Of a stretch of DNA of 64,000 nucleotides, positions 3,915-62,238 are shown piece after piece; within the stretch, counting starts at the first letter, position 1; every line of letters starts with the position of its first letter. The translations under genes were made by a program, and so were the position numbers. The notes under the pieces were generated by a model. It ran no database searches and was not told the origin of the DNA. It saw nothing but the letters and a program-made list of their open reading frames with translations. Source of the DNA: a virus (lineage: Duplodnaviria > Caudoviricetes); IMG/VR virus record IMGVR_UViG_3300020202_000076, positions 401 to 64,400 of that record, one strand, 5' to 3'.

Positions 3915-4205
3915 GTGAGCGTCGACTATTTCCTGTTTTCGCCCGGGGCCAACAGGGCAGTGCTGATCGGCTCGGTCGGCGCGTTCGGTGTCAAATCTTG
4001 GCCGGTTGAATATGGCGGGCGGGAGTTCATCGCTTGGGCAATCGAGGAATCCATCAACGACGTGCGGATGGTGAGCGAGCGCGAGTTGCCGGAGAGTTAT
4101 GAACGCTTTGTCCCGCGGCCCCCCGCGACGAACGAGGAAGACAGCGGCAGGACTCCGCAGAAGACGGAGCCCCTACTTAAGTCTTCCCCTGATAGGGACA
4201 CATGA
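3915..4205 (+). CDS. Hypothetical protein bracketed by family-I junction motifs
   Basis: GTG at 3915 (or ATG at 3867); C-terminus is encoded through the motif at 4122-4171. Confidence 0.5.
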   Translation: MSVDYFLFSPGANRAVLIGSVGAFGVKSWPVEYGGREFIAWAIEESINDVRMVSERELPESYERFVPRPPATNEEDSGRTPQKTEPLLKSSPDRDT

Positions 4206-4522
4206 CGGCGAGGCGGGGTGACATCGCTGATCTGCCGGCTTGGCCGCTCGGGCTCTCGCTCGAACAGGCTGCCGCTATGGTCGGGGTGTCCGAAAGCCAC
4301 TTCCTTGAGCACTGCAAGCTGATTCCCGTCCGCATCGGCTCCCGGAAACTCTACGACCGGGACGAGGTCACCGCCTGGTTCAAGGGCTTGAAGGGGGTGG
4401 TTGACGCGACCAAGCCCGGCAAGCCAGCCTTACCGCCCCGCCGCCGTTCTGCCATGGAGATGCTGGATGCCGCGTTCACGAAAGAACGTAGTCCGCCGCA
4501 AGCTCGCAGACGGCTCGGTTAA
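4202..4522 (+). CDS. xis: Excisionase / AlpA-like HTH
   Basis: PLGLSLEQAAAMVGVSESHF...PVRIGSRKLYDRDEV..W; immediately upstream of and overlapping the integrase. Confidence 0.75.
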   Translation: MTARRGDIADLPAWPLGLSLEQAAAMVGVSESHFLEHCKLIPVRIGSRKLYDRDEVTAWFKGLKGVVDATKPGKPALPPRRRSAMEMLDAAFTKERSPPQARRRLG

Positions 4523-5435
4523 GGTCTATGTCTACGAGGGCGGGATCAGGACGGACGCCGAAGAGGCGCCGAAGCCCAAAGACCTCGGCGACCTGATCCG
4601 TGACTACCGCCGCCCCAAAGGCCCATGGTGGAAGCTCGCTCCGAACACGCAGCGCACGCAGAACGCGGCAATGAAGAAACTGGAGGCCATTCACGCGACG
4701 CTGCTATCCGACATCGACGCGGCGTGGTGCGAGCGCGTTCAAGAGCACCTGTCGGATACCCCCGGCATCGCCAACATCACCACCGGACTGTTGCGGCGCA
4801 TGTTCAAGCGCGGCGTGAAGCTCAAATGGATGCCCTTCAACCCTGCTGCAGACCTTGAGAAGCTGAAGACCGGAGAGGGCAAGCCCTGGCCGCTCTGGGC
4901 CATCAGGCAGTTCCGTCAGCGCGCCCCGGCGGACTGGTGCTTCATCTTCGACCTTGCCATCGCCACCGGCCTGCGCGTGAGCGACCTGCGGGCGCTTCGG
5001 TGGTCCAACTACGACGGGACATGGATACGGTGCATCCAGCAGAAGACCGGCGAGGAAGTCGAATGCCTGCTGGTGCCCGAGATGGTGCGGCGCCTCAATC
5101 AGAAGAAGCGCCAGGCGCGGGGGCTGTCGATCATCGCCACGGCGACGGGCACGCCCTACACCAAGACCGGCTTTGAAGCAGCCTGGTACAAGGTCCTCAA
5201 GCACACGGGGTTGAAGGGGAAGGGCTACACCTTCCACGGGCTGCGCCACACGCACGGCACCATGCGCGCGGACTCCGGCGACAGCGAGCACACCATCGCC
5301 GCAGCCCTCGGCCACAAGAGCCTTCAGAGCACGCGCCGATACACGAAGAACGCCAACCGACGCCGGCTTTTGGAAGACGCTCAGGAGCGTTTTGCCGCCG
5401 AGTGGCAAAACGGCAAATCCAGCAAGTCTAACTAG
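4467..5435 (+). CDS. int: Tyrosine integrase
   Basis: Catalytic motifs TGLRVSD, QQKTG, FHGLRHT, LGHKS and RRY. Confidence 0.95.
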   Translation: MPRSRKNVVRRKLADGSVKVYVYEGGIRTDAEEAPKPKDLGDLIRDYRRPKGPWWKLAPNTQRTQNAAMKKLEAIHATLLSDIDAAWCERVQEHLSDTPGIANITTGLLRRMFKRGVKLKWMPFNPAADLEKLKTGEGKPWPLWAIRQFRQRAPADWCFIFDLAIATGLRVSDLRALRWSNYDGTWIRCIQQKTGEEVECLLVPEMVRRLNQKKRQARGLSIIATATGTPYTKTGFEAAWYKVLKHTGLKGKGYTFHGLRHTHGTMRADSGDSEHTIAAALGHKSLQSTRRYTKNANRRRLLEDAQERFAAEWQNGKSSKSN

Positions 5436-5560
5436 CGATCACCCTTGAGAAAATGCCATGCTTTTGGTAACGCACACTCCCAATCATCTGAGCGACTTAA
5501 TGAGGCGCGGCTGTCAAAAGTTGGCCGCCGTGTTCCTGAGTCGTTTGCTGTCGGCAAAAC
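5389..5560. other. Putative attP region with integrase arm-type repeats
   Basis: Lower-GC stretch after int. GGCAAAAC at 5389-5396 (-), 5404-5411 and 5553-5560; variant GGCAAATC at 5412-5419. Confidence 0.45.
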
Positions 5561-5624
5561 GAACGGCCGACATGCTGGCCAAGGCCCGAGCGAAGGGGCT
5601 GAAGATCATCGAGCGGGGAGCGCA

Positions 5625-5894
5625 ATGAGCGAGCGATGCCCAACTTGTGGTCAGTCGATGCGCAAGCCGACCGCGCCGCCGATCATGAGTGCGGACGCCC
5701 TGGTCGCGTTGATGCGATCGCCAACGCCCAAGGGCGGCTCCGCATGCGTCTATCTGACGAACAGCGGCGGATACGCCATCGAGTACGGGCGGGGTCGCGT
5801 TCATCTGGACGCCATAGACGAGGCGCGGTCTCGCGGGCTCATCGTGCCAAAGTGGCCAGATCGTCACCCCACCGGCTATTGGCGGCTGGCGTAA
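5625..5894 (+). CDS. Hypothetical protein with N-terminal CxxC
   Basis: GGGGAG SD; MSERCPTCG. Confidence 0.55.
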   Translation: MSERCPTCGQSMRKPTAPPIMSADALVALMRSPTPKGGSACVYLTNSGGYAIEYGRGRVHLDAIDEARSRGLIVPKWPDRHPTGYWRLA

Positions 5895-5913
5895 GGCTCA
5901 GCCACAATGCCCC

Positions 5914-6201
5914 ATGCCCTCCGCCTACACCGTCGCCGACGTGCTCCGCTATGGCTACACGCTGACGGTCTATTGCCGGAACCACAAATGCGAGCGGAAC
6001 AAGAAGCCTGCCCCTGGAGCACCGAGAATCCCGAAGTGGGTAACCCTCGACCTGTCGAAATATCCTCCTATGACACCTGTAGACGACATAGAGGCAAGGC
6101 TCAGATGCTCGGTATGCAATGGGAAGGATGTGCTTCTACAGGTGACGCCGGGAGAGGGTGTGCCGGGAGCGGGAAAGCCGAAGTATCGGCCTATGGAGTA
6201 G
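5914..6201 (+). CDS. Zn-ribbon hypothetical protein
   Basis: LTVYCRNHKC...RLRCSVCNGK. Confidence 0.65.
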   Translation: MPSAYTVADVLRYGYTLTVYCRNHKCERNKKPAPGAPRIPKWVTLDLSKYPPMTPVDDIEARLRCSVCNGKDVLLQVTPGEGVPGAGKPKYRPME

Positions 6202-6288
6202 AATATGGACTGGGCACTGTCTCAGTTAGATCGGTGACCGGCCGCTAACGGGGTTGGACCCGTCCGGCCCCCATGCCATCTTAGCCGC

Positions 6289-6469
6289 ATGCCCAAGGGA
6301 CCTAAAGGCGAGCGCCGCCCCGCCGATGTCGTCGGCGCCGCCATCATGGTGGCGAAGATCGCGGTCGGCGAGGTCGAAGAGAACACGCCGGCCAGGGAAG
6401 GGAAAGAGTACGCCCGCAAGGGCGGCCTGAAGGGCGGGAAGGCCCGCGCCAAGGCCCTTACCCCCAATC
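6289..6469 (+). pseudogene. Small basic IS-associated protein, truncated by the IS1595 left end
   Basis: MPKGPKGERRPADVVGAAIMVAKIAVGE...GGLKGGKARAKALTP; the frame runs into the terminal inverted repeat at 6470. Confidence 0.6.
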
Positions 6470-6633
6470 CGGTCTTTTGGTGCAAAGGCCACCAACCGAT
6501 TCAAGGTGATAAGCGATGAACGAGCAGAACCCGAGAGAAGCGGCATTAGGTAGCTGAAACAACCAGCCTCCTTTTGCCGCTCAGTTGAAAGGACTGAGCT
6601 ATGGAATTCCGGAAGGGGGCGATGGTCGCCCTC

Positions 6634-7527
6634 TCAGTCTTGGTACTCGTAGTTGGGATCGTCGTGAACAACGAGGCGTTCGGAAGCTCCTCCGACCTCT
6701 TCCAGGACGCGACAGCAAGACGTGGTGCGCCCGCGTCCATCCAAATCGACATAGTTCACGATCCCCACGACATAGAACTTCGCGGTTCCGTTCCTAAGCT
6801 CGATGAATTCCGAGCCTGTAATCGCCCTATGCACCGGGAGCCCAGACGGTATTTGCGGCATTCCTGGGTGCATCCATCCGTCCATCGCGAGAATGACGGG
6901 CGTCATGCTCCCGAGGTCAGTTTCCCGAGGTGGGAGCGGTCGTCCCTTGGGAAGGATGATGCCTACTATCACCGCGCGCCGAACCTGACCGAGCGTGAGC
7001 CCGCTGTTCACTATCGCCCAGTCAACTGTGACTGGTTGTTCGCTGGTGATCGACCTCGCCATCCAAACATGACGCACGCGGATCAGCGGGCGATGATTGG
7101 CGCGGAAGTCCCTTTGCAGCTCGCCAGTGGTGCGTCGGGCCTCTCCAAAGGTCTTCCACAAGAACCAAAGGGTGATGAACCCAACAACCAGTTGAACGGC
7201 CGTGAGCCCCGCGAGCGCGCTGGCCCAGAAGGCCATGTCTTCCTGTGCTTTAAGGTCCGCAGCCTCCCGCTTGTCATCGTCGGGCTTGTCGGCCTCTTTG
7301 CGTGCCTCACGGGCATCTTGGCGGGAAAGTATCTGTATCGCCTCGTTGGCGGCGGATACGAGGCCCCACAACGCTTCGATGGCGTGCGTGTTGTCGGTAT
7401 TCTGGCTTTGGGGATTGGCTTGATCTGGGCTGGGCTGCTGTTGGGCAAAAGCTACTGCGCCTAGCAGCAACCAGACAGCTAGGAGTCCTCCAGCCGCAAG
7501 ACGGTGCAGCCAATCGCTACGAGACAT
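6634..7527 (-). CDS. Membrane/secreted passenger protein
   Basis: N-terminal signal-like segment and a second TM (FWASALAGLTAVQLVVGFITLWFLW). Confidence 0.7.
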   Translation of the reverse strand: MSRSDWLHRLAAGGLLAVWLLLGAVAFAQQQPSPDQANPQSQNTDNTHAIEALWGLVSAANEAIQILSRQDAREARKEADKPDDDKREAADLKAQEDMAFWASALAGLTAVQLVVGFITLWFLWKTFGEARRTTGELQRDFRANHRPLIRVRHVWMARSITSEQPVTVDWAIVNSGLTLGQVRRAVIVGIILPKGRPLPPRETDLGSMTPVILAMDGWMHPGMPQIPSGLPVHRAITGSEFIELRNGTAKFYVVGIVNYVDLDGRGRTTSCCRVLEEVGGASERLVVHDDPNYEYQD

Positions 7528-7706
7528 TGGACAAAGAAAGCCGCCGTGAAGCCACCCCGGCTGATCTTGTTCGCGATGTTGCGTTCTGTCTCGCGGATTC
7601 CGAGTGGTTCTAGCTTTTCGGCCAACTCTCGGTAGCCGACGTTTCGGCGCTTAAGTTCGGCCTTTAACAAGGACTTAACCCGCTCAGACCATTCCTTTTC
7701 CGGCAT
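7479..7706 (-). CDS. DUF6471-like HTH protein, divergent from the transposase
   Basis: W..RVKSLLKAELKRRNVGY.ELAEKL...ETERNIANKISRGGFTAAFFVQCL.AIG. Confidence 0.8.
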   Translation of the reverse strand: MPEKEWSERVKSLLKAELKRRNVGYRELAEKLEPLGIRETERNIANKISRGGFTAAFFVQCLVAIGCTVLRLEDS

Positions 7707-7806
7707 AGACACCCCGTTTCCGTGGGAAATATCACCATATCCGATGTAAACACCATTGACAACGGGACGGATCATCATCATATTCGATGTATCAACATCG
7801 GATTTG

Positions 7807-8775
7807 ATGATGTCTCAGCACTTCCTCCTCTCCTCAGCCGCCCGTTCGCTCTCCCTGGCGAAGGTCATGCGGCTGTCGGACGAAGAGGCTTCCGCCACCT
7901 TCGCCAAGGTCCGTTGGGCGTGTAACGACGGCAAGCCGGTCTGCCCGAAATGCGGCTCCGTGACCGTCTACGCCTGCAAGTCCCGCCCGATCTTCAAGTG
8001 CAAGGACTGCAAGGCGCAGTTCAGCGTCACGAGCGGCACCATCTTTGCCGACCGCAAGCTCCCGGTGCGCGACATTCTCGCGGCCATTGCGATCTTCACG
8101 AACGGCGCCAAGGGCTACTCGGCGCTTCAACTGAGCCGCGATCTGGATTGCCAGTACAAGACGGCGTTCGTTCTCGCGCACAAGCTCCGGGAAGCGATGG
8201 CGGCTGAGAGCAAGACGCGCACGCTCAAGGGTCACGTCGAGATCGACGGCGCTTTCTTCGGCGGTCACGTCCAGCCCGAGAACCGCAAGGAAGACCGCAA
8301 GGACCTGCGCCTCAAGCGGAACCAGACCGGCAAGCGCAAGGCCGTGGTGGTCATGCGCGAGCGCAACGGCAAGACGCTTACCGCCGTCTTCGCGGCCGAA
8401 GGCGATGCCGTCCAGACCGTGCGTGACCGCGTTGAGAGCGGCACCACGATCTATGCCGACGAAGCCTCGCATTGGGATGCGCTGCACTCGCGCTTTGACG
8501 CGAAGCGCATCAATCACAGCATCGCCTTCTCGGATGACGGCGCCTGCACGAACCAAGCGGAGAGCTTCTTTAGCCGTCTCCGCCGCGCGGAGATCGGCAC
8601 GCACCATCATATCAGCGGCCAGTACCTCGCTTCCTACGCCAACGAAATGGCGTGGCGCGAAGACAACCGCCGCGTTCCGAACGGCAAGCAGTTCCTGATG
8701 ATCGCGGGCGCCGTCATGGCCGCTCCGGTCTCGTCTCAGTGGTGCGGTTACTGGCAGAGGAGCAACAAGGAATGA
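7807..8775 (+). CDS. IS1595-family DDE transposase
   Basis: Zn finger CPKC...CKDC; VEIDGAFFGG, IYADE, INHS, TNQAESFFSRLRR, YANEMAWRED. Confidence 0.95.
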   Translation: MMSQHFLLSSAARSLSLAKVMRLSDEEASATFAKVRWACNDGKPVCPKCGSVTVYACKSRPIFKCKDCKAQFSVTSGTIFADRKLPVRDILAAIAIFTNGAKGYSALQLSRDLDCQYKTAFVLAHKLREAMAAESKTRTLKGHVEIDGAFFGGHVQPENRKEDRKDLRLKRNQTGKRKAVVVMRERNGKTLTAVFAAEGDAVQTVRDRVESGTTIYADEASHWDALHSRFDAKRINHSIAFSDDGACTNQAESFFSRLRRAEIGTHHHISGQYLASYANEMAWREDNRRVPNGKQFLMIAGAVMAAPVSSQWCGYWQRSNKE

Positions 8776-9218
8776 AGATCGAGCGCCCCAACACTCTCTC
8801 GGGCCTCGTGGACAAGCGCCGCGAGATCGCCGGCAAGGTCGGCGAGACGCGCGCCCTGCTACGCCAACTCATCATCGACTTGGACCACGTAGACGCGGCT
8901 ATCCGCCTCTTCGATCCGACCTACGATGTAGAGGGACTGCGGCCGAAGCTTCCGCAGGCTCGCGGCTACGCCATGAAAGGCGACGTGACGCGCGCCTTTC
9001 TGGAAATCCTGCGGAAGGCGGATGGCCCAATGACTACGCAAGAGCTAGCCAAGCACCTGATGACCGAACGTGGCCTCGATCCCAAGGACGTTGATCTAGT
9101 GCAGACCATGACTCGGCGCGCGGGGCCGCTTCTCAAGAACCAATTGAAACGCGGCGTTCTCAGGCGGACCAAAGACCCGAAGCATGGGCGCTTTAGCTTC
9201 TGGGAGATCGCGGACTAG
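8772..9218 (+). CDS. IS passenger: coiled coil plus winged-HTH-like protein
   Basis: ATGA-coupled to the transposase; SGLVDKRREIAG...DLDHVDAAIRLFDP...ILRKADGPMTTQELA. Confidence 0.75.
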   Translation: MKIERPNTLSGLVDKRREIAGKVGETRALLRQLIIDLDHVDAAIRLFDPTYDVEGLRPKLPQARGYAMKGDVTRAFLEILRKADGPMTTQELAKHLMTERGLDPKDVDLVQTMTRRAGPLLKNQLKRGVLRRTKDPKHGRFSFWEIAD

Positions 9219-9406
9219 CTTTCCGGATGGTCTGACGCCTTCCGAGGCGCGATGACCTGTTTTCCCAACGCCTCCCTGATGCCGGCCTCAATCAGGGTTC
9301 GCGCCACGTCAGTCTTGTCCTTCCCGTACGCGCCGATATCCGCCAAATCCTCAAGATAGGCGTGCATGATCGGGGCTAGACGCGGCTCAACCTTCTTATT
9401 GGCCAT
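9215..9406 (-). CDS. Small ribbon-helix-helix-like protein
   Basis: 63 aa, KKVEPRL...YLEDLADIGAYGKDKTDVARTLIE.GIRE; palindromic repeats upstream. Confidence 0.55.
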   Translation of the reverse strand: MANKKVEPRLAPIMHAYLEDLADIGAYGKDKTDVARTLIEAGIREALGKQVIAPRKASDHPES

Positions 9407-9427
9407 TGGAGGCAGCGTACCACGACA

Positions 9428-9469
9428 TGGCTGCCAATTGACCGCCAGTCGGCTGCCATTTGGCAGCCA
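9428..9469. promoter_or_regulatory. Putative operator repeats (GGCTGCCA)
   Basis: GGCTGCCA at 9429 and the palindrome GGCTGCCA-TT-TGGCAGCC at 9451-9468, upstream of the RHH-like gene. Confidence 0.45.
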
Positions 9470-9509
9470 CAACATGCTTGACGGCGCCGGCCGTCACCTA
9501 CTACATTTC

Positions 9510-9538
9510 GAAAAAGAAGGGCGCCCGAAGGCGCCCCT
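9510..9538 (-). terminator. Rho-independent terminator
   Basis: Minus strand GGGCGCC-TTCG-GGCGCCC followed by TTCTTTTT. Confidence 0.7.
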
Positions 9539-9779
9539 GAGGTCAGTTAGGTGGGTGTCCTGGTGGAGGGGACCCCATTGCTCGCGAGAGAGTGATCGGC
9601 CCTGGAAAGATCGGGCACTCGCTCCGAGAAGATCAGCTTAGCGCGAATCCCCCGCGACCGCAACATGTCGCGGGCGATTAGCCCATCTGCACAAACTGTT
9701 GTGACCCCGACTCTGAGTCATTGGGCGAGAATTTCCCCCTGATTGACTCAGGAGCCGCGGTCGTTCTCTCATTGTTCCC

Positions 9780-10109
9780 ATGCCCCCGATTGACGGACGC
9801 GCCCGGCCCCTAGCCCACGGGGACCGGCCCAGGAAGAAGGGCGATCTCGTCCGGCTCATCGCCGGGAGCGTCATGCATCGCCTGCCCGAAACCAACCAAG
9901 ACGTAGCTATAGAAGTCGCCGAGCTGGTCTTGCAGGTCTTCGCCGAGAGCGGGCTACGGATCATCTGGCGGCCGAAGCTGCCTCCTACCCGACCGGCCTA
10001 CGTCCCGCCGAAGAGGGGCAAAGGCTCGCGACCCGCCCACTACCCGCTGCCGCGCATGGGGGAGTCGATTGCCGAAGCGCAGGAGAGATTGAAGCGGGAG
10101 AAGGAGTAG
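9780..10109 (+). CDS. Hypothetical IS passenger
   Basis: 109-aa ORF with plausible composition. Confidence 0.5.
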   Translation: MPPIDGRARPLAHGDRPRKKGDLVRLIAGSVMHRLPETNQDVAIEVAELVLQVFAESGLRIIWRPKLPPTRPAYVPPKRGKGSRPAHYPLPRMGESIAEAQERLKREKE

Positions 10110-10202
10110 CGGGCACTTTGGCGCAAACGCCACCTAGCGCATGGGGCGGCGCAACCTTCGACTCCCGGAGGTTGTCGCGGTACACTAGTAGCGGGAGTCG
10201 GA

Positions 10203-10490
10203 ATGGAGGCGCGAGTGGCGAAGTTCGTGATTACCTACGACCTGCGAAAGGTTCGGGACTATGACAAGGTCTACGAACTTCTCGGAAAGTGGAAAGCGGT
10301 CCGAATCCTTGAGTCCGTATGGCTGGCCGGTATTGAGGGCACAGCATCCCAGGTCGTGGACGCGCTACGAAAGCAAGCCGACTTCGACGACGGGCTTGCA
10401 GTAATCCAGCTAAAGAACCCCGGCGACTGGGCCACCGTCGGAGTGGGCGACGCGTCCCTGAAGTGGCTTCGCGCAAACATTGCTCCGTAA
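10203..10490 (+). CDS. Cas2/VapD-like ferredoxin-fold protein (no CRISPR context)
   Basis: FVITYDLRK.RDY..VYE.L..W.AVRILESVW. Confidence 0.65.
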   Translation: MEARVAKFVITYDLRKVRDYDKVYELLGKWKAVRILESVWLAGIEGTASQVVDALRKQADFDDGLAVIQLKNPGDWATVGVGDASLKWLRANIAP

Positions 10491-10607
10491 CTGGGGAGTC
10501 ATCCAAAACTCCTCGCGTATCCTGACGGGCACGCGCAAGACGGCAGCAATCCAACACACGATCTTTGCGCGCATGGCTTAGCCTCCTATCTCCGAAGGGG
10601 ACTCGCG

Positions 10608-10913
10608 ATGAGCTACGCAGCACTGAAGGCCGCAATTCAAAAGCGCCAATCCGTGACGTTTTACGTTCGCGGCAAGGTCCGCCATGTCAGCCCGCACGCC
10701 ATCGGCACGAACAGCAAGGGCGTCGCAAACGTCATGACGTTTCAGTATGCGGGAGACGGCAGTAAGCCGCTGCCCATCGGGGGCGAGTGGCGCTGCTTTG
10801 AGGTAGCGGACGTTTCGGGTGTGCGCGAGAACGGCGATCCGTGGCACACAAACCCGTTCGAGCACTCCGAGCGGAACACCTGCGTTACGCACGTTGATGC
10901 TTCCACGTCCTAA
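10608..10913 (+). CDS. Stand-alone WYL-like domain protein
   Basis: LKAAIQKRQSVTF...G..R.VSPHAIG...WRCFEVADVS. Confidence 0.65.
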   Translation: MSYAALKAAIQKRQSVTFYVRGKVRHVSPHAIGTNSKGVANVMTFQYAGDGSKPLPIGGEWRCFEVADVSGVRENGDPWHTNPFEHSERNTCVTHVDASTS

Positions 10914-11097
10914 GCTCCGGCAGCATCTCGGGCGATAGAGCGGGCCACTCGGCCGCAGCAAATCGCTTAGCCTGATCGGGCGCGTTGCGTCCTAAGAAAA
11001 TCGCCTTCTCGCAGAGGCCGTCGTCCTGGGGGTCGATGTGCTCGACCGCCCAAGCAACCTCGCCAGCATCGAAGGGGTAGATCGCAACCCAGGCCAT
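10885..11097 (-). CDS. Hypothetical IS passenger
   Basis: WAVEHID..DDG.CEKAIF.G..A...A..FA pattern. Confidence 0.55.
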   Translation of the reverse strand: MAWVAIYPFDAGEVAWAVEHIDPQDDGLCEKAIFLGRNAPDQAKRFAAAEWPALSPEMLPELRTWKHQRA

Positions 11098-11154
11098 GGG
11101 CCACCTTGAAACTGCAATTGCAGTTACAGTACCATAGGGCTTCGGTTGTGTCAG

Positions 11155-11349
11155 CTACCTAATGCCGAACTTATGGCGCGGCGGGATCTTGGTCGGGTTC
11201 TCGGCATAGCCGTGCAGCTCTAGCGTCCGGTCTATCGCCCGCAGATCGGCTAGGAGCTTGTCCAACTCGACCTGCGCCTTGCGGACCAGGCCCGACACGT
11301 CCGCCCGCTTCCTGACCAGAGCCTCTACGACCAACGAATGCTCAGGCAT
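11155..11349 (-). CDS. Short paralogue of the N-terminal half of the 8772-9218 protein
   Basis: ALVRKRADVSG...DLRAIDRTLEL aligns with GLVDKRREIAG...DLDHVDAAIRL; GGAGG SD. Confidence 0.6.
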   Translation of the reverse strand: MPEHSLVVEALVRKRADVSGLVRKAQVELDKLLADLRAIDRTLELHGYAENPTKIPPRHKFGIR

Positions 11350-11434
11350 GCATCCCTCCATTGCTGGAGGGGCAAGTTAGCCGCTCATGCCGCTAATGGG
11401 TTGACGGGCTTGGTGGCCCTTGCGCCAAGATACC

Positions 11435-11527
11435 GCTGTGTCGCCTTAAACTTGACGCTCCTAAGCTCTTGCAGAGCCGGAGGCGAGCGGCCCTGCAAAA
11501 GCCGGTACTCAAGCCCGGCCCGCAGCT
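11435..11527 (+). ncRNA. tRNA-like structured element 1
   Basis: 5' GCTGTG pairs with 3' CGCAGC; T-arm-like GCCGG-TACTCAAGC-CCGGC stacks on it. Shares GCCCGGCCCGCAGC with element 2. Confidence 0.4.
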
Positions 11528-11628
11528 AATAACCATCTGTTGCACCACCGACATCGTGTCGGCGAGGACAGAGGTAGGGCGGCTCAGCCTCAGCCGACGC
11601 AAGCCGGGGCACTGAAGCGGAGACGACG

Positions 11629-54672: not shown

Positions 54673-54996
54673 CTACCCCCTCCCCTCGGACGCCGCGTTG
54701 TCGGGGTTGGCTCCGTCATCCTTCGGCGTGCTGCCGTGATCAGCAGAGCCCGTCGCGGGAGGCTTCGGGAGCGGCATCCAGTGGGTGAACTTGCGGTTCT
54801 GGACGATGTCCCGGAACGGCACCTCGACGATGCCGAACCCAAGGAAATTCTGAGCGATGACCGGCTGCTGGATGATCAGGTCGCGCGCAACGAGGTTGTC
54901 GTTCTCATCGAACTCTTCGACCTTCGTAATCACGGTCCACGCGAGGAACTTCGTCCCGTCCTTCGGCGCCGTCTTGATGTCTCGCCACTCGCTCAC
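54673..54996 (-). CDS. DUF551-family protein
   Basis: EWRDIKTAPKDGT.FL...THWMPLP.PP; tail encoded through a family-I motif. Confidence 0.8.
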   Translation of the reverse strand: MSEWRDIKTAPKDGTKFLAWTVITKVEEFDENDNLVARDLIIQQPVIAQNFLGFGIVEVPFRDIVQNRKFTHWMPLPKPPATGSADHGSTPKDDGANPDNAASEGRG

Positions 54997-55617: not shown

Positions 55618-55625
55618 GAAAGCGG

Positions 55626-55670
55626 AGGATAATAGCAATCTTCCTACCGGTCAAGATAGGAATGATCCTC
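55626..55670 (-). promoter_or_regulatory. Cro-side promoter with two operators
   Basis: Minus strand TTGACC-N17-TATCCT; operators TAGCAATCTTCCTA (55633-55646) and TAGGAATGATCCTC (55657-55670). Confidence 0.7.
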
Positions 55671-55708
55671 CGCGCGAATCGCAACGTTCATCCGTAGGAT
55701 CGGCGCCC

Positions 55709-56176
55709 ATGGGGAGCGATGCAGCCGAGCGGGCGCGCGAGTTGGTTCGCGAGCGGATCAAAGACCTCGGCCTAGAAATGAAAAGCCTTTCGCGCGAAAT
55801 TGGGCGAAATCCCGCCTATATCCATCAGTACCTAAACAAAAGGTCGCCACTCTATATTGGAGAGCAGGAGCGCCCGATCCTGGCAGCCAAACTTGGAATC
55901 TCGGAAGACCTCCTCAAGCCCCCTCCCAAGACTGATATGCAACCGAAGCCGAGATTCAGCGGCTTCAAGGGCGTCAGAAAACCGATCACCGACCAGGCGC
56001 TCATCGAGGGCCTGATTTCGCGAATGCTCCATATTAATCAAAGCTTGAAGTTGAATTGGTCGCCCGAGCGGATGGCGCGGGCAATTACCCTCGGATACGA
56101 GGCTGGCGTAGAAGAGAACGAAGCCAATCCAGTTGAAATTATTGACAAACTAGTTGCCGCGCTAAAGCGGAATTAA
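55709..56176 (+). CDS. CI-like repressor lacking an S24 peptidase domain
   Basis: I...GL.MK.LSREIGRNPAYIHQYL.K.SP..I.E..R..LA..LGI; 155 aa. Confidence 0.8.
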   Translation: MGSDAAERARELVRERIKDLGLEMKSLSREIGRNPAYIHQYLNKRSPLYIGEQERPILAAKLGISEDLLKPPPKTDMQPKPRFSGFKGVRKPITDQALIEGLISRMLHINQSLKLNWSPERMARAITLGYEAGVEENEANPVEIIDKLVAALKRN

Positions 56177-56540
56177 TGCCTCTCTCGTGTCCGTGATTGC
56201 GCATCTACACCTTTCGCTTGCACTCCGTCACGGTTGAGACGCAGAATGTCACAGCCAGTCACAGACGGCGCGGAGGCGATATGCCGACACCGGGGCAATG
56301 GGCAAGAGCGTGTGCAGCGCTCGATGACTTGATCCTCCGCGAGATCCTGCTGGATAACCCGGCAGCCGGGAAGCTCCTTGTACGCCGGCTGAAGAAATAC
56401 GGCCGGCTGGCCCTCCCCCGCCCTCCCGTACCCCGGTCGCTCCCGCGCGCCCGAGCCCGGCCGCCTGGCTCTAAGCCCCTTAGTTAACCTGCGATAATAG
56501 CGGCGGGCCGCTCAGCGGTTCCGTTGGCATGGCTAGACGG

Positions 56541-56583
56541 TAGCATTTTTCCTATTGACGGTCGGTAGCAATCATCCTATTAT
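56541..56583 (+). promoter_or_regulatory. Early rightward promoter with two operators
   Basis: TTGACG (56555)-N17-TATTAT (56578); operators TAGCATTTTTCCTA (56541-56554) and TAGCAATCATCCTA (56566-56579). Confidence 0.75.
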
Positions 56584-56622: not shown

Positions 56623-56991
56623 ATGGGGATGGCGGAGAAGATCAAGAGCGAGGGGACTGCCCTTCGGGATCACGTTGAGCCATCTGCCGAACCTGCGGGC
56701 GCGGAGGTCTCGTTCGCCAAGTGGCTGTCCGACGAGATCGAGCGCGCCGCCGAAGACGCTGAGGAAAGCCACGTTGAGGCGCGCAACACCTACGGCGCCG
56801 GATACGACCGGGGCTATGTCAACGCGCTGAAGGCGGTCGAGGGTCGCGGCGTCAGCGACATGTATGCCTCACTCGTGGAGGTGGTCGCCGCCACCGATGC
56901 CTACGACGAAAGCCCGGCCGCTGATGATCGCTGCATCCGCGCTATCGAGAAATGCCGCGCCGCCTTGTCCCGCTCCCGTGGGGAGGGCTGA
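56623..56991 (+). CDS. Early hypothetical protein
   Basis: GGAGG SD; shares both termini with 57227-57784. Confidence 0.6.
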   Translation: MGMAEKIKSEGTALRDHVEPSAEPAGAEVSFAKWLSDEIERAAEDAEESHVEARNTYGAGYDRGYVNALKAVEGRGVSDMYASLVEVVAATDAYDESPAADDRCIRAIEKCRAALSRSRGEG

Positions 56992-57289
56992 TCATGTCCG
57001 TAGCCGGCCGCGTCAGCGATGCCCCTTGGGGCGACATGACCAACGCTCAGCGCTTCGCTCTTGAAGAAGCGGGCGACGCTCATATCGCCACTGCATTCAA
57101 CACGATCTCTTTCGCCGTCTCTCAGCGCGTTGGCGGTGACGAGCTTCGGCGCCGCCTCAAGCGTGCGCTCGCCAGCCTCGACGAGGCCCGCGGCATTCTA
57201 ACCAAGCTGAGCGCGGAGTAGCCCCCATGTCCGAGAAGATTTCAGGGACTGCCCTTCGGGATCACGTTGAGCCATCTGCCGAACCTGCG
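56653..57289 (+). repeat. 45-bp perfect direct repeat (56653-56697 and 57245-57289)
   Basis: GGGACTGCCCTTCGGGATCACGTTGAGCCATCTGCCGAACCTGCG occurs twice. Confidence 0.9.
56994..57221 (+). CDS. Early hypothetical protein
   Basis: GGAGG SD within the repeat. Confidence 0.55.
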   Translation: MSVAGRVSDAPWGDMTNAQRFALEEAGDAHIATAFNTISFAVSQRVGGDELRRRLKRALASLDEARGILTKLSAE

Positions 57290-57784
57290 AAGAGCGAGCC
57301 GGGGCTCGCCAACCTCCACGTCGATTGCGTGAACGAAGAGCGCAATTACGGTTCTGTCGGATGGGAGGCCGAGGGCGCTCGGTTTCACATCTGGGTCACT
57401 CTTCCTGGCCTCGCCCATAATGGAATTCTTCATAAGAACGTTGGCAGCGGTCGGGCTCACTCGCACAGGAGCCTGAACGCTCGATCCAAGAAGTGGGCGC
57501 CCGTCATCGACGCCGCCTTCAACGAGGTCCGAACGCGCGACCTGATCGCGGGCGCCATCGCCGCGAAAGACGCCGAAGACGCTGAGTGGAGGCGCCTCAC
57601 CGAAGAGAGCGCCGCCTTTGAGCGGAAGCGTGAAGCTGGGCCCGATCTCTACGCGGCAGCGCAGAGCCTGATTAACGGCATCGACACCGGCTTGGTCCGG
57701 CTCGAAACCGACGCAGACGAGACGCTGGCGAACACGATGCGCGACCTGCGCTCCGCCTTGTCCCACGCCCGTGGGGAGGACTGA
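57227..57784 (+). CDS. Early hypothetical protein
   Basis: GGAG SD; AGPDLYAA...RSALSHARGE tail. Confidence 0.6.
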   Translation: MSEKISGTALRDHVEPSAEPAKSEPGLANLHVDCVNEERNYGSVGWEAEGARFHIWVTLPGLAHNGILHKNVGSGRAHSHRSLNARSKKWAPVIDAAFNEVRTRDLIAGAIAAKDAEDAEWRRLTEESAAFERKREAGPDLYAAAQSLINGIDTGLVRLETDADETLANTMRDLRSALSHARGED

Positions 57785-57786
57785 TC

Positions 57787-58083
57787 ATGTCCACGCAGCG
57801 GGTGTTCCGTAATCGAAAGGAAGCGGAGAAGGCGGGGTTTAGTTCCTTCTCGAAGGGCTTCAACGAAGAGTGGCGGAAGGGCGAAGGCAAGAACCACGAG
57901 CGCGCCATAGTCCGGTCACCCCTCGAAGCTCGGCTCGCCGAAGCGCTGGAGGAAGCGGAGCAGGGAGGGCCGCGCTGCCCCTGCTGCGGTCGGGATGCGC
58001 GTCCAGGACGCGATCCGAAACACCGGCACGCCGAAGACTGCAAGCTCTCCCTCGCCTTGAGGGCGTTCCGGGGTGAGTCATGA
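57787..58083 (+). CDS. Early hypothetical protein (CxxC...H..DC)
   Basis: GGAGG SD; CPCCG...HAEDCKL. Confidence 0.55.
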   Translation: MSTQRVFRNRKEAEKAGFSSFSKGFNEEWRKGEGKNHERAIVRSPLEARLAEALEEAEQGGPRCPCCGRDARPGRDPKHRHAEDCKLSLALRAFRGES

Positions 58084-58397
58084 CACAGCCCCGCACAGAA
58101 GAAGAGGCGATTGCGCGGTTGCGGGAACTGCATCGGAAGATCGATGTGCTCGCTGACGAGGCAATGCTCCTGCACCTGTCGGCAAAGCTCCCCCCGTCCC
58201 TCTGCAGCAAAGCGGAAGAGACGCACGGGTATCTGCGCTCGACGCTGAGCGACTGCGACATCCCGTACGCCATCAAGATGCAAGCGCGGCGCGATCGAGA
58301 CGAGGACGGCGACGAGGAACCCTACGGGCGCATGAGCCGGCATTCCGATGAGAACCACGCCGGCATCTGCGAGCACATCAGGAATGCGGCGGAGTAG
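58080..58397 (+). CDS. Early hypothetical protein
   Basis: ATGA coupling. Confidence 0.5.
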   Translation: MTQPRTEEEAIARLRELHRKIDVLADEAMLLHLSAKLPPSLCSKAEETHGYLRSTLSDCDIPYAIKMQARRDRDEDGDEEPYGRMSRHSDENHAGICEHIRNAAE

Positions 58398-58400
58398 ACG

Positions 58401-58727
58401 ATGAGCGACCGATTGACATGGCAGGAGAAGGCAGCGGCGCTCGATGCGCTCTCCGAGATCCGACTTCTGATCCGCAAACCCGGCGATTGGTACGTGCATC
58501 AGAACGTCTCGGTTGGCGACGGGTCCGCCACGCTTGTCGGCGCGTACGGGAACGGCGAGACACCCGAGGCCGCGCTCAATGATCACTGGCGCGCTCTGGT
58601 CACCGACCTGGTGGGCTGCGGCCCCACCGAAAAGTACCTCGTGGTCTCCGGCGAGAAGGGCAACCGCCGCGTCCGCTGGAACGGCTTCATGTGGATCGAA
58701 CTTCCGCAGCCCAAGGCCGAGTCATGA
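58401..58727 (+). CDS. Early hypothetical protein
   Basis: GGAG SD; GNG.TPE.A..DHW...VRWNGFMW. Confidence 0.6.
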   Translation: MSDRLTWQEKAAALDALSEIRLLIRKPGDWYVHQNVSVGDGSATLVGAYGNGETPEAALNDHWRALVTDLVGCGPTEKYLVVSGEKGNRRVRWNGFMWIELPQPKAES

Positions 58728-58831
58728 CCCCCATGCACAGCAGCTTATCCCAGACAGGGGAGAGGAAGATTTTTGGTCCCTTCGGATCGTTTGCACCGCA
58801 TCGCCCAACCACTGAGGACTGAGAGGAAGAG

Positions 58832-59431
58832 ATGTCGATGTACGAAGAAGAAGATTTCGATGGGCCGGATCGCTTCAGCGAAGGCGACGGCCAGATGAAG
58901 GCGCTCCTGACGCTCAAGGGCTTCAGCACGCGCGATCTGTTCTACCACATGGCCCGCGCCGTGCTGGACGAAGAGGGGCTCACCAAGCACGACCTCTCGA
59001 AGAAGGTCTTAACGGCTGTCGAGAAGGGGCTTGAGGCGGCTCTGTCCGAAGCGATGAACGGCATCATCGCGCAGCGCGCCGAGAGGCTTGTCGATGAACT
59101 GCTCACCAAGGAATTCGTGAAGACGAACGAGTGGGGCGAAAAGAAGGGCGAAACCATCACCCTTCGCGAGCACATCCTCTCGCTCTTTACGAAATCCCTC
59201 CAGGAGCGCGTGGACACCGACGGGCGCAACTCCTCCTACAACAACGGCATCACGCGCCTGGAGTGGATCATCAAGAAGCACGGGACCGATGGTCTCTTGG
59301 AACTCGCCAAGGGACAGGTCGCGAACGTGCGCAAGGAAGCCGAGAAGCAGATCGCGGCAGCGGTCGGCGCCTTCATCGCTCAGAACCTTGCGCAGCCTCT
59401 CACCGCGGCGACCGCGCTTCCGAAGCAGTAG
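58832..59431 (+). CDS. Early hypothetical helical protein
   Basis: GAGGA SD; TNEWGE.KG..ITLRE.I. Confidence 0.65.
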   Translation: MSMYEEEDFDGPDRFSEGDGQMKALLTLKGFSTRDLFYHMARAVLDEEGLTKHDLSKKVLTAVEKGLEAALSEAMNGIIAQRAERLVDELLTKEFVKTNEWGEKKGETITLREHILSLFTKSLQERVDTDGRNSSYNNGITRLEWIIKKHGTDGLLELAKGQVANVRKEAEKQIAAAVGAFIAQNLAQPLTAATALPKQ

Positions 59432-59513
59432 CGATCCCACGGGATGCGCCTCACATCGAGACGCATCACGGGCGACCGCCCTCCGCAAACCAGCGGATCA
59501 CATAACCAAGAGG

Positions 59514-60401
59514 ATGAAATCAATGCGATCGAACTTTCTGAAACGACTTCTCTACGGCGCGGCACTCTGCCTCGCCCTGGCGCCTCCGGCCAATGCCGAA
59601 ATGCTCTGGTCCGGACCGTCGAATACCGGGCTGTTCAACGCGCAGATCAGCGAGACGACGAAGGAAAGCCTGCTCGTCCACTACAGCTATCGCGATGAAG
59701 ACGGCACGGCTACCTGGTTCGCCGCGAACGGCAAGAATGGCGGCGATGCCGACCAGTTCAAGGGCCAGACCTTCACCTGTCGCGACGGCCAGCCCTTCGG
59801 CGGCACCTACAGGGCGCCGACCTGTGATGTGTTCGGCTTCCTCAGTGTCGAGTGGCCCTCGTCCCAGACCGGCAGCACCTACAACATCAACGTCGACCTC
59901 ATCGGCACGATCTACCTGCCCAACGACCGCCAGAAGTACGGACAGACGATCACGCCAACGGTGGTAGAGGCTGGCCCCGGCGGCGGCCCGAAGCCGCGCA
60001 ACGACTGTCCGGCTCAGGTCTCCGGCACGGGCGCGTGCATCGCCTATCACCCGGACGGCTGGTACTGGCGCTCGGCCGAAGGTGGCGAGGGCTGGTCGAT
60101 CCTGTTCCAGGGCGACTCCCTGTTCGCGACCGTCTTCACCTACGGCACCGATGGCCGGAACACCTGGAAGATCGCGACCGGACGTATGACGAGCGTGTCG
60201 TCTTTCTCCGGTGCGCTTCAGAGCTGCCGGAAGCCGGCGGGCGCGACCTCGGCGACGTGCGAGAGCGAAGGCAACGTCAGCATGACCTTCCGCACGGTCG
60301 ACAACAGCCCCCAGGCGAACACCTCGCGCAACACGAAGTACATCGACGTGACGCTGCCCACCGGCAAGCAGTTCACGCTCGAACGGTTTCTTCCCAACTA
60401 G
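59514..60401 (+). CDS. Secreted protein with two tandem beta-rich domains
   Basis: Signal peptide (AALCLALAPPANA); repeated Y..DG..TW....G...F.G....CR segments. Confidence 0.7.
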   Translation: MKSMRSNFLKRLLYGAALCLALAPPANAEMLWSGPSNTGLFNAQISETTKESLLVHYSYRDEDGTATWFAANGKNGGDADQFKGQTFTCRDGQPFGGTYRAPTCDVFGFLSVEWPSSQTGSTYNINVDLIGTIYLPNDRQKYGQTITPTVVEAGPGGGPKPRNDCPAQVSGTGACIAYHPDGWYWRSAEGGEGWSILFQGDSLFATVFTYGTDGRNTWKIATGRMTSVSSFSGALQSCRKPAGATSATCESEGNVSMTFRTVDNSPQANTSRNTKYIDVTLPTGKQFTLERFLPN

Positions 60402-60476
60402 GCCGACGACTTCGGCTGCGCCTCACTGCAGGGGGCGCAGAGGTGGTCGCCGGAGATAACCAGAGGAGCGAGGACG

Positions 60477-60758
60477 ATGGAGTTGGAACAGATTGAAGCA
60501 AGGGCCACAAAGCCTCGTCGCGTCATCTTGGGAGAGGGCGCTCACGTCGTCAACTACGGGACATGGGAAGGATCTCCGGCTGTCTTCATCGAGCCGGCGC
60601 CTTCGCCCGGCCCGGTCGGCGGCGATGCGACCGGCGCCGGGCTGCCCAAGGATGTCGTCAGCCCGGCCGGTCTCGTCCTCACGCTCTTAAACCCCCTGGC
60701 CGCGCTCACACTGATCGAAGCCATCACCAAGGCGCTGCTTCCGCGCAAGCCCGCCTGA
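60477..60758 (+). CDS. Hypothetical protein
   Basis: GAGGA SD. Confidence 0.55.
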   Translation: MELEQIEARATKPRRVILGEGAHVVNYGTWEGSPAVFIEPAPSPGPVGGDATGAGLPKDVVSPAGLVLTLLNPLAALTLIEAITKALLPRKPA

Positions 60759-60795
60759 CCACCCGTCCACCGGACCATAGGGGGAGAGATAGATC

Positions 60796-61023
60796 ATGTA
60801 CCAGCCCGGCCAGTGCGTTCAGTCCAGAGATGGGATCGGGACGGTGACGCGCTCTCTCGCTTCCGGCTTTGCATACAAGGTCGTGTTCCCGGGACTCGGA
60901 GAGGTCGTGTGCATGTCCTCTGTCCTTTCGGAAGCGCCGGAGAATGTCATCTCGATTTCTCGGGGCTGCGCTTCGCGATCACGCGGCACCTCATCGCGTC
61001 AAAGTCAGGGAGAGAGGATGTGA
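60796..61023 (+). CDS. Hypothetical protein (SH3-like pattern)
   Basis: YQPGQ.V....GIGTV......YKVVF. Confidence 0.45.
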   Translation: MYQPGQCVQSRDGIGTVTRSLASGFAYKVVFPGLGEVVCMSSVLSEAPENVISISRGCASRSRGTSSRQSQGERM

Positions 61024-61274
61024 GCCGGAAGCTTTCCGACAATCAGCGTCGCGCGCTGGAGATTCTGCGCAAAGGTGCGCCATGGCCGAGTGCATACGAC
61101 CTCGGTGTGGGGCTTGGAACGCTGAACTCTCTCGAAGGCCGCGGCTTGGTGATGGCGCACCACGGACTCGGGTCGCTGTTCTCGCCGCACACAGCGATCA
61201 AGTGGTCAATAACGGAAGCCGGCCGCGCCGCCCTCACCGAACGGTCAACTGAGCCCCAAAAGGACGTGTCATGA
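61020..61274 (+). CDS. Winged-HTH-like hypothetical protein
   Basis: KLS.NQRRAL...TL.SLE.RGLV...ITEAGRAAL. Confidence 0.6.
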   Translation: MSRKLSDNQRRALEILRKGAPWPSAYDLGVGLGTLNSLEGRGLVMAHHGLGSLFSPHTAIKWSITEAGRAALTERSTEPQKDVS

Positions 61275-61884
61275 GCGGTGTTCTCGCAGCCCTCGGGATG
61301 ATCGGGCTCCTCATGGTTCTCTTCAGACGAATGGGCGGCTTTTCTTTCTTGGAGTGTTTCGCCGTGGGCGTCGGGATCGGCGCCTGTTTTCTGCAGTCTC
61401 TCCAATACTTCGCAGGCACGCCATGACCCCTACATCTGCCGACTCGATCCTTCCTGATCCGCCGAACAGGAGTGAGGCAGAGGCCCTGTGGAACAGGATC
61501 GAGCGAGCGATTGCTGTGGCGAAGTCTGAACTCGCGGGGAGCTACCAAGTGCCTCAAGGCAAGGCCCGCTCAGTTTTCCGCCGAGAAACCGTCATTCACA
61601 TGGTCGACATCCTGGAAGGGAGACGCTGATGCAAGCGCTCAACGAACGCTTCCGCGCATGGTTTGGCCGCGATGGCGGGGACACTCCTCTGGCCCAGGAA
61701 GAGGCCGAGGCCCCGAAGGCGAAGCCACAAGAGATCCCGGCGAAGAAGGCTCGAACGGTCGCCGACCTCCCTCCGATGCGCCACCCGGAATACCTCGGTG
61801 TCCACATGGCCAACGCTCAGAACGCGAGTGCAATGCGATGACCAAGGGACTGGAGCCCATGGAGCAGGATGTGGGGAGGGCTTC

Positions 61885-62238
61885 ATGAGCGAGTGGCTGC
61901 CCGCCATTGCGTATCGTCGGCTGTGCCGGGAGATCGCGTCTGAGATTGTCGCGGCGATGGCGTTCCGAGACATGGGCTTTGAACAGATGGCCCCGGTCAT
62001 TGGCTCCACCGCTGGCGCTCTCAAGCGGAAGCTCGACCGGCTGATCGCGGGTCAATCGATTTCGCTCCGCGACGTGAGCGATCTTGCGTGGGCCCTGGAC
62101 TGTCGACTGTCCTTCCGCCTTGTCCCGCGCGAGCCGGACAAGGCTCCCGCGACGAACTCAAGCAACAGCGGAAGCACTCTGAAGGACGACGGAGCCACAT
62201 CGGATTCCGGGGAGCAGGAGGCGAAGCAGTCGTCATGA
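61885..62238 (+). CDS. HTH-like protein ending in a family-I motif
   Basis: GGAGG SD; FEQMA..IG......ISLRDVSDLAWALDC.L.F.L. Confidence 0.6.
   Translation: MSEWLPAIAYRRLCREIASEIVAAMAFRDMGFEQMAPVIGSTAGALKRKLDRLIAGQSISLRDVSDLAWALDCRLSFRLVPREPDKAPATNSSNSGSTLKDDGATSDSGEQEAKQSS

Follow-up and report, generated by a model that had tools for sequence, protein, structure and literature searches.

Six copies of a tripartite motif at gene junctions

The stretch of DNA analyzed here (the window) comprises 64,000 nucleotides, bases 401 to 64400 of the 64.4-kb IMG/VR record IMGVR_UViG_3300020202_000076, and belongs to a temperate, SU10-like phage from soil, as indicated by Pfam, PHROG, and NCBIfam matches on the window (all positions are in window numbering). 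Dispersed over ∼35 kb of its nonstructural DNA, with several genes between copies, are six copies of a motif of 50 to 51 nt in total that consists of three boxes, box A (CTCCCGCGACG), a central CGG(CAG), and box C (G[AC]CGGAGCC(A)), with spacers of 13 to 14 and 15 to 16 nt and a gap between boxes A and C that is constant at 32 to 33 nt. An original prediction, made from the sequence alone, had located these six elements and described them as having fixed ends and a fixed CGG, a spacing constant to within 1 nt, and diverging spacers. Our analysis bears this out: the composite pattern CCCGCGACG-N12-16-CGG-N13-18-GNCGGAGCC matches the window exactly six times, compared to not once in 100 dinucleotide-preserving shuffles, and the boxes are invariant in 16 full copies from the window and its relatives. 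The bare 9-mer CCCGCGACG, allowing up to one mismatch, is not enriched (54 found versus 70 expected), and the signal therefore resides in the composite. A profile built from the six copies recovers only those six from the window with nhmmer, and neither this profile nor one built from 16 copies finds any copy in the virion operon (∼15.3 to 45 kb), where the original prediction had seen none either. A further partial copy suspected at ∼3888-3920 did not survive, since the 6-copy profile gives the stretch at ∼3884-3915 an E value of 5.3 and the 16-copy profile does not report it at E ≤ 5.

All six copies are co-oriented with the local genes according to our own codon-usage gene calls, which are crude and not those of a standard gene finder. 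Their positions are the 3′ ends of accessory genes, or the junctions of such genes, within the nonstructural part of the genome, in agreement with the original prediction, and mark boundaries before the replication module, before the excisionase-integrase pair, and before and after a unit with a release factor 1 (RF1)-like gene. The copy at 4122 (copy 1; 4122-4171, + strand; 50 nt, spacers 14/15) is read in the frame in which CCC GCG ACG encodes Pro-Ala-Thr (frame 1) as the tail ...PRP-PATNEEDSGRTPQKTE-PLLKSSPDRDT* of gene 3867-4205; the stop codon of this gene shares bases with the ATG (4202) of an HTH_17 excisionase-like (xis-like) gene directly downstream (4202-4522, + strand), which a tyrosine integrase gene (4467-5435, + strand) directly follows. 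The copy at 11788 (copy 2; 11788-11837, + strand; 50 nt) begins 4 nt past the TAA (11782-11784) of a 51-amino-acid (aa) gene, 11629-11784, in the same frame, and its frame 1 remains open up to the TGA of the ATGA overlap at 11886 where gene 11886-12206 starts; we read it as what may be a former gene tail cut off by a stop. The copy at 13096 (copy 3; 13096-13145, + strand; 50 nt) begins 5 nt past the TGA that ends the RF1-like gene (12519-13091), from whose reading frame it is offset by +1, and sits at the end of the rightward operon, facing convergent genes and with no downstream gene; its GGAG is followed after 6 nt by an ATGATG that opens a 14-codon open reading frame (ORF). These two copies bracket the release-factor unit (11886-13091, + strand), as had been pointed out, which is made up of gene 11886-12206, a small ORF, and the RF1-like gene.

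On the leftward strand, the copy at 50613 (copy 4; 50564-50613, − strand; 50 nt, spacers 13/16) fills a 30-codon mini-ORF (50634-50542) that is joined through ATGA at both ends, with gene 50631-50969 ending (TGA) on its ATG and gene 50285-50545 starting (ATG) on its TGA. The copy at 54759 (copy 5; 54709-54759, − strand; 51 nt, spacers 14/16) forms the tail ...THWMPLPKP-PATGSADHGSTPKDDGA-NPDNAASEGRG* of DUF551 gene 54673-54996, which meets DUF1643 gene 54115-54672 at a TAG-ATG junction; the Pfam domain of the DUF551 protein ends at residue 80 (profile position 67 of 68), before the motif, and the tail is therefore an add-on. The copy at 62146 (copy 6; 62146-62196, + strand; 51 nt) encodes the tail ...REPDKA-PATNSSNSGSTLKDDGA-TSDSGEQEAKQSS* of a small helix-turn-helix (HTH) protein (gene 61885-62238), after which an ATGA overlap leads to a 22-codon mini-ORF (62235-62303) and a second ATGA to gene 62300-62467 and the replication module. 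The sole visible role of the two mini-ORFs (50542-50634, − strand, 30 codons; 62235-62303, + strand, 22 codons) is a translation relay between genes.

An open frame and conservation of nucleotides

Across the 16 full copies frame 1 contains no stop, compared to 5/16 and 4/16 copies with stops in frames 2 and 3, and its arginine content is low (mean of 0.75 per copy versus 4.2 and 4.6). In 13 of the 17 distinct copies examined it forms the C-terminal tail of an otherwise unrelated ORF with 55 to 227 open codons upstream, with a typical reading of ...P-PAT[GN]S[AT]D[SN]G[SN]..K.DGA[ST]S*, a bland Pro/Ser/Thr/Asp/Gly linker. In the early operons, gene after gene is joined through ATGA stop-start overlaps, and copies 4122, 11788, 50613, and 62146 are entered or left through such overlaps, in some cases via mini-ORFs. 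The element is an ORF-compatible, usually translated gene tail, a point absent from the original prediction, which had counted three copies as noncoding. That count stands for 13096, which is plainly noncoding, and not for 50613, which lies in its 30-codon ORF; 11788 is placed one codon past a TAA in an open frame. The window thus holds three protein tails, one mini-ORF filler, one copy behind a TAA, and one plainly noncoding copy.

Several features show where the constraint acts. Box A and CGGAGCC are identical in 16/16 full copies (from the window, the phage record G001 introduced below, and contigs of metagenomes or metagenome-assembled genomes) while the spacers vary, and the Pro-Ala-Thr codons show no synonymous variation whatsoever across these copies. 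The CT preceding the CCC is fixed, even though it constitutes positions 2 and 3 of a codon whose position 1 is variable. The reading of box C depends on copy length, being D-G-A at 51 nt and T/P-E at 50 nt, and GGA, a rare glycine codon in G+C-rich genomes, is retained in 9/9 of the 51-nt copies. In the copy at 50613 and in contig L166, spacer 1 has lost 1 nt and spacer 2 has gained one, a compensation that preserves the boxes and the length but not the peptide, and the extragenic copies 11788 and 13096 have perfect boxes. The middle does show some synonymous-type variation (TCT/TCA/TCC/TCG, GAC/GAT, AAG/AAA); in the close pair of 54759 and contig L162, it differs by ∼6 nonsynonymous and 3 synonymous changes, counted by eye. 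Invariant boxes, a box C read in two frames, compensated indels, and perfect extragenic copies argue that the constraint acts on nucleic acid, as the original prediction had held. From this pattern of change, we conclude that the motif is conserved at the nucleotide (DNA or RNA) level and that the peptide is merely kept harmless.

Relatives of the motif and their genomic positions

Exact-pattern scans of viral, genome, and metagenome collections, filtered by profile (E ≤ 1e-3 for genome contigs), placed the motif in a small set of other sequences. Among viral contigs, the strict scan returned 37 loci, of which only that in the 41-kb record G001 (one full and one shortened copy) is a true homologue and the others reflect a conserved unrelated gene or chance; a looser scan returned 13 loci and again only G001. 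Three of the 89 loci from the strict scan of genome contigs passed the profile filter, with 4 hits in total, two of these contigs coming from one metagenome-assembled genome (MAG) labelled Salinarimonas and one from an Opitutus-labelled MAG. The strict scan of metagenome contigs gave 30 loci, 8 of them convincing (L141, L143, L145, L155, L157, L160, L162, and L166). The resulting motif family consists, besides the window, of G001, L162, L155, L157 (two copies), L145, L166, L141/L143, the Salinarimonas-labelled L111, L122, and L191, and the Opitutus-labelled L124. L157, L111, and L145 overlap with 99 to 100% identity and represent ∼8.5 kb of one phage, here called phage S, that has five co-oriented copies and in which ∼5 of ∼20 genes carry the motif. 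Copies in relatives are likewise all on the sense strand of the local operon. We also note a shorter subtype (47 to 48 nt; GCGACGGGCTCGGC...GACGGAGCC) lacking the CCC of box A in G001 (L047) at 19291-19383, in L111 at 1431-1490, and in L191 at 1498-1560, with a second box C ∼25 nt further on in G001. Searches by protein yielded nothing closer than relatives at 25 to 39% identity for the portal and nothing but G001 for the replication initiator.

Flanking sequences are unrelated on both sides in nearly all pairs, and each copy is therefore an island of homology at a module boundary. The window copies are 60 to 74% identical to their siblings and 79 to 85% identical to particular copies in other phages, which indicates that they are old and have been kept rather than recently homogenized; subfamilies share ∼12 more nucleotides upstream, such as CCGGAAGAGRCT in 62146, G001_17018, and L157b. 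The genes that bear the tail are accessory and mutually unrelated (DUF551, a Tad3 anti-Thoeris homologue, the small HTH protein, and several unknowns). They vary from one phage to another and are placed at different points of a backbone that the window, phage S, and L162/L124 have in common. An orthologue of the small HTH protein from elsewhere (P0002) is also tailed, ending PPATNTA...QPEPP. In the Tad3 homologue (L155:3-338, + strand; PF25185, E = 4.8e-20), the motif is a C-terminal extension past the domain end. Neighbours that are shared include the replication initiator and a DUF968/HNH-type nuclease gene, the latter being the best conserved gene common to the window, G001, and phage S (66 to 68% aa identity).

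In three phages (the window, G001, and L145 of phage S) the motif lies upstream of an HTH_17 xis-like gene. An integrase follows in the window and in G001, the two enzymes sharing just one 43-residue stretch at 40% identity, and the L145 contig ends within the xis-like gene. Compared with L145, G001 has an extra 92-aa ORF between the motif and xis. An apparent decayed second motif copy before the G001 xis is visible in pairwise alignment and undetected by profile, and we have left it uncounted.

The original prediction had suggested looking in relatives for breakpoints inside the motif. The motif is an island of homology between unrelated flanks, and no indel junction inside it and no pair of an empty and a filled site were found among the relatives compared; in L162 and L124, the sole pair with 100% identical flanking DNA, the identity begins at a distance of ∼280 nt from it. 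Two DNA sequencing runs gave contigs that are identical over the listed stretches, among which no junction linking two motif copies appears, although contigs miss rare forms. As judged from these sequence comparisons, the motif marks variable junctions.

Genome context

The gene calls define three blocks, with rightward genes running from ∼55.7 kb through the wrap to 13.1 kb and leftward genes from 55.6 kb down to 13.4 kb, and two sigma-70-like promoters are divergent (55654-55626, − strand; 56555-56583, + strand). A 55,340-nt contig of soil-metagenome run X1 covers 57260-64000, continues for 44,271 further letters, and then covers 44001-48328. Since this one contig joins the window end to the window start, the record, which is classed as linear and 86% complete, is probably a complete genome of ∼64.3 kb, circular or circularly permuted. 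Neither megablast with 1-20000 nor blastn with 61000-64000 found a match among GenBank phages, and no cultured phage has a terminase more than 48% identical to the one encoded here.

The matches that identify the phage include an SU10-type portal and adaptor, the tyrosine integrase, a replication initiator of the NGO0469 family, and RusA. The virion operon is closed by a 2,018-aa polyvalent protein (15307-21363, − strand) with LPD3, LPD38, and weak ADP-ribosyltransferase domains. Inside the accessory region, an IS1595-family (ISXO2-like) transposase gene (7804-8772, + strand) adjoins a DUF6471 gene on the opposite strand (7482-7781) and may represent an insertion sequence resident in the phage. 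An early gene is tandemly duplicated (56623-56991 and 57227-57784), the duplication being marked by repeats of 45 nt at 100% identity (56653-56697/57245-57289) and of 44 nt at 91% identity (56956-56999/57749-57792).

Within the bracketed unit, gene 11886-12206 (+ strand) has a paralogue at 47409-47813 (− strand; 36% identity over 106 aa), and the RF1-like gene (12519-13091, + strand) matches RF1 residues 160 to 342 at 144 bits, compared to a full-length cutoff of 423. The truncated protein retains a PxT-type tripeptide (PPT) and GGQ and lacks the N-terminal domain. A scan of the window for tRNA and tmRNA genes found none, and the long virion ORFs are uninterrupted; these two observations together give no sign of stop-codon recoding.

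Between the divergent promoters lies a gene for a 155-aa HTH protein (55709-56173), modelled (mean pLDDT of 69.6) with an N-terminal HTH, a Pro-rich linker, and a C-terminal helical domain, which is probably the immunity repressor. The promoters themselves carry operator-like repeats, a 21-nt inverted pair at 55622-55673 (leftward) and a 19-nt direct pair at 56538-56581 (CGGTAGCA...CCTATT, rightward).

Comparison with known signals and repeats

The motif belongs to no Rfam family, the whole window giving 0 matches at gathering score, a check that had been named as one that could overturn the original prediction. RNAalifold on 7 copies yields just 4 invariant pairs (−2.38 kcal/mol) and no covariation, and single-sequence folds, with z-scores of −2.0 to +0.8, reveal no conserved hairpin; both agree with the earlier statement that a consistent hairpin is lacking. 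GGAG is placed 6 to 7 nt before the ATG of an ORF of at least 40 aa in only 2/18 copies and, elsewhere, 13 to 108 nt away where such a start was found; with short ORFs counted, an ATG falls 6 to 7 nt past GGAG in 5/19 full or degenerate copies (13096, L155, L157a, L162, and L191). Judged by this spacing, box C is not a general ribosome-binding site. Tethering of 16S rRNA, in the manner of a termination upstream ribosome-binding site (TURBS-like), finds no support either, as the boxes pair with Rhizobiales 16S rRNA no better than shuffled boxes.

Other candidates were set aside in turn. A diversity-generating retroelement was dismissed, there being no reverse transcriptase in the Pfam hits and the differences between copies not being limited to adenines by eye; also by eye, no match was seen to a tRNA-like 3′ end or to sigma-54, extracytoplasmic-function (ECF) sigma, or LexA (GTTC-N7-GTTC) boxes. 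A crRNA-like unit (handle, 32 nt, handle) was rejected because the centre is homologous between copies.

The integron-like reading offered by the original prediction finds no support in these comparisons. Integron attC sites contain imperfect inverted repeats (R″/L″ and L′/R′) that fold as a hairpin, and they require an IntI integrase beside attI. The soil phage motif resembles them in its conserved ends, its variable centre, its position at the 3′ end of accessory ORFs, and its single orientation, and differs in that there is no hairpin or attC-type folding, no IntI-type integrase, and several genes between copies, such that the motif does not close every cassette; the ∼280 nt separating the motif from the L162/L124 identity is a further mismatch. 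A co-occurring recombinase had been suggested as a thing to look for, and the only tyrosine recombinase in the window is of a generic Xer/phage type that scores 20.6 bits against the integron-integrase model TIGR02249 (cutoff of 265). Rickettsia palindromic elements offer another parallel, being palindromic, in-frame insertions of 100 to 150 bp internal to genes. Like them, the motif is a repeated nucleotide element tolerated in one frame in unrelated coding genes, while it differs in being nonpalindromic, 50 nt in length, and located at gene ends.

Three phage systems come closer. The start-associated sequences (SAS) of Cluster K mycobacteriophages, with the consensus GGGATAGGAGCCC, which contains GGAGCC, lie 3 to 7 bp before the start codons of genes of different families, and the upstream stop may fall inside them; their extended form (ESAS) adds paired 17-bp imperfect inverted repeats, for which a DNA-binding factor is suspected (PMC3203893). 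SAS and the soil phage motif are alike as short, asymmetric, multicopy repeats of the nonstructural half, nearly always in one orientation, that contain GGAGCC, accompany genes of different families, and may hold the stop codon of the gene before them. The 3- to 7-bp spacing to a start is, however, absent here (2/18 copies), the ESAS repeats contrast with three unlike boxes, a 32- to 33-nt gap, and no inverted repeat beyond CTCC...GGAG, and, in contrast to both, the soil phage element is normally translated as a protein tail (PMC3203893). In Cluster A mycobacteriophages, stoperators are 13-mers with the sequence of the early-promoter operator; they are bound by the immunity repressor and silence elongation through prophage operons (PMC9283540). 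Like our motif, they are asymmetric, occur many times in dispersed positions at gene junctions, and are oriented with transcription (for the motif, 6/6 in the window and all in relatives), and they provide a model for how the transcriptional mechanism that we prefer below could work (PMC9283540). Unlike stoperators, the motif spans 50 nt, lies inside coding tails, has no copy in the virion operon, and is unrelated to the promoter-region repeats at 55622-55673 and 56538-56581 (PMC9283540).

PeSL (promoter early stem-loop) cassettes of T4-type phages combine a strong sigma-70-like promoter with a terminator stem-loop, are intergenic, and recombine to cause insertions, deletions, and replacements (PMC2839356). 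The likeness lies in small conserved cassettes bordering nonessential genes in variable regions, and the difference in the absence of a sigma-70-like promoter or stem-loop from the soil phage motif and in its translation (PMC2839356). Because SAS/ESAS, stoperators, and PeSLs each have a defining feature that is absent here, the element belongs to none of them. Set against these three, it is a dispersed, oriented cis-repeat of phage early regions that is unusual in being a translated, frame-constrained tail.

A possible binding site and its alternatives

Fixed boxes, a gap constant within 1 nt, strict orientation, confinement to early operons, and placement at module boundaries point to the cis-acting site of a sequence-specific factor. 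A binding site for a multibox regulator or antiterminator, the other class put forward by the original prediction, is the class that we tentatively prefer. Our tentative proposal, which we put at somewhat below an even chance, is that the motif is an orientation-dependent binding site for a putative factor, compatible with translation and doubling as a homology patch for module exchange. Such a factor would bind the tripartite site sequence-specifically and in one orientation and would most likely act on transcription across module boundaries, where the site could block elongation as a roadblock, take part in factor-dependent termination or antitermination, or provide an internal promoter. Transcriptional action, either stoperator-like or as an internal control point, is the form we favour. 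Candidate binders encoded in the window are an HTH_3 protein (3577-3867), the HTH_17 protein (4202-4522), a protein with a LexA-type DNA-binding domain (49909-50277), the small HTH protein (61885-62238), and the DUF968/HNH protein (144-488). The site would be built for translation because the early operons are chains of overlapping, coupled genes, and an open frame 1 would let it occupy the last codons of genes in operons with almost no untranslated gaps. Since the same 50 to 65 nt occur at many boundaries in several phages, the copies could also act as homology patches for swaps of accessory genes, and accessory-gene exchange at the copies is likely whichever explanation of the motif holds.

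Several observations weigh against a transcriptional binding site. Promoter and terminator scans found no sigma-70-like promoter or intrinsic terminator at the copies. The operator-like repeats of the early promoters are A/T-rich and unrelated to the boxes, and the presumptive immunity repressor is therefore probably not the binder. G001 lacks the motif upstream of its orthologue of gene 62300-62467, showing that it can be missing at a shared junction. The 16 copies represent perhaps five or six lineages of phages, and the counts are thus not independent. Finally, the open frame 1 in noncoding copies and the mini-ORFs fit a role in mRNA or translation about as well.

That role would be one in which ribosomes read through the motif and the Shine-Dalgarno (SD)-like GGAG of box C, with box A as a partner upstream, favours termination-reinitiation, or coupling, at the start that follows. 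Frame 1 is open in 16/16 copies, tails mostly end on ATGA or TAG-ATG junctions, mini-ORFs act as apparent relays at 50613 and 62146, gene 11886 lacks its own SD while its ATGA is where the frame 1 reading ends, and an ATG follows GGAG at 6 to 7 nt in the 5/19 copies listed above. We nevertheless regard this as unlikely, given that GGAG is properly spaced before an ORF of at least 40 aa in only 2/18 copies, at least 4 window copies have a separate SD-like sequence near the next start, pairing with 16S rRNA is no better than for shuffled boxes, no conserved RNA structure or covariation is present, the copy at 13096 has no downstream gene, and box A is left unexplained. Slightly less probable still is that the motif is a homologous-recombination linker and nothing else, a leftover gene end spread by module shuffling in the way of lambdoid "boundary sequences" or T4-type PeSL shuffling. 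The islands of homology between unrelated flanks, the ∼12 further upstream nucleotides shared by subfamilies, the tail-bearing genes in different slots of a shared backbone, and the additional 92-aa ORF of G001 relative to L145 would all follow from it. Neutral homology, however, would decay evenly, whereas the 11-nt and 9-nt ends are invariant and the middles ∼40% different, and the copies are not homogenized within a genome. In addition, the supposed decayed second copy of G001 is not significant by profile, and no 50613/54759 joint occurs in the contigs examined, a weak point as contigs miss rare forms.

Two further explanations seem to us less credible again. A putative recombinase or nuclease might recognize boxes A and C and mobilize units of ORF plus motif, which would account for fixed ends around a variable centre of fixed length, for the position at the 3′ end of accessory ORFs and the co-orientation, for the two copies bracketing the RF1 unit, and for the five copies in ∼8.5 kb of phage S, with the DUF968/HNH-type nuclease gene, best conserved in the window, G001, and phage S, at hand. 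This is very unlikely in the face of the missing inverted-repeat core or hairpin, the generic, non-integron type of the integrase, the unrelatedness of the motif-adjacent integrases of the window and G001, the majority of genes that have no motif, and the failure to find any pair of empty and filled sites with junctions inside the motif. Its fullest version, a new gene-cassette system of temperate soil phages in which a dedicated enzyme (the DUF968/HNH nuclease being one candidate) recognizes boxes A and C without an attC-like hairpin and moves units of an accessory ORF and a translated 50-nt site between phages, Tad3-like anti-defence genes included, is one to which we give just as little credence. 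We place least weight of all on the idea that the accessory proteins share a C-terminal peptide (PAT[GN]S.D.GS..K.DGA) that works as a tag, for example as a degron or in docking. Reading in frame in 13/17 copies examined, some synonymous-type variation in the middle, and the tail of the P0002 orthologue are what such a tag predicts, and they are countered by the two frames of box C, the frame-shifted middles of 50613 and L166 that lose the peptide and keep the nucleotides, the Pro-Ala-Thr codons without synonymous variation across 16 copies, the perfect boxes of extragenic copies, and the nonsynonymous changes between the middles of 54759 and L162, which are as common as synonymous ones (∼6 and 3, by eye).

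Whichever way the motif acts, dispersed and oriented repeats of phage early regions have earlier led to a new mode of regulation, in the case of stoperators, and to an account of accessory-gene shuffling, in that of PeSLs. The motif described here is unusual in being kept as nucleotides yet readable by ribosomes as a harmless protein tail, and it tags accessory genes, an anti-defence homologue included, in uncultured soil phages. If its binder or an exchange mechanism were found, it would help to locate accessory and anti-defence loci in phages of this kind and would exemplify how a cis-acting site may survive in operons without intergenic space.

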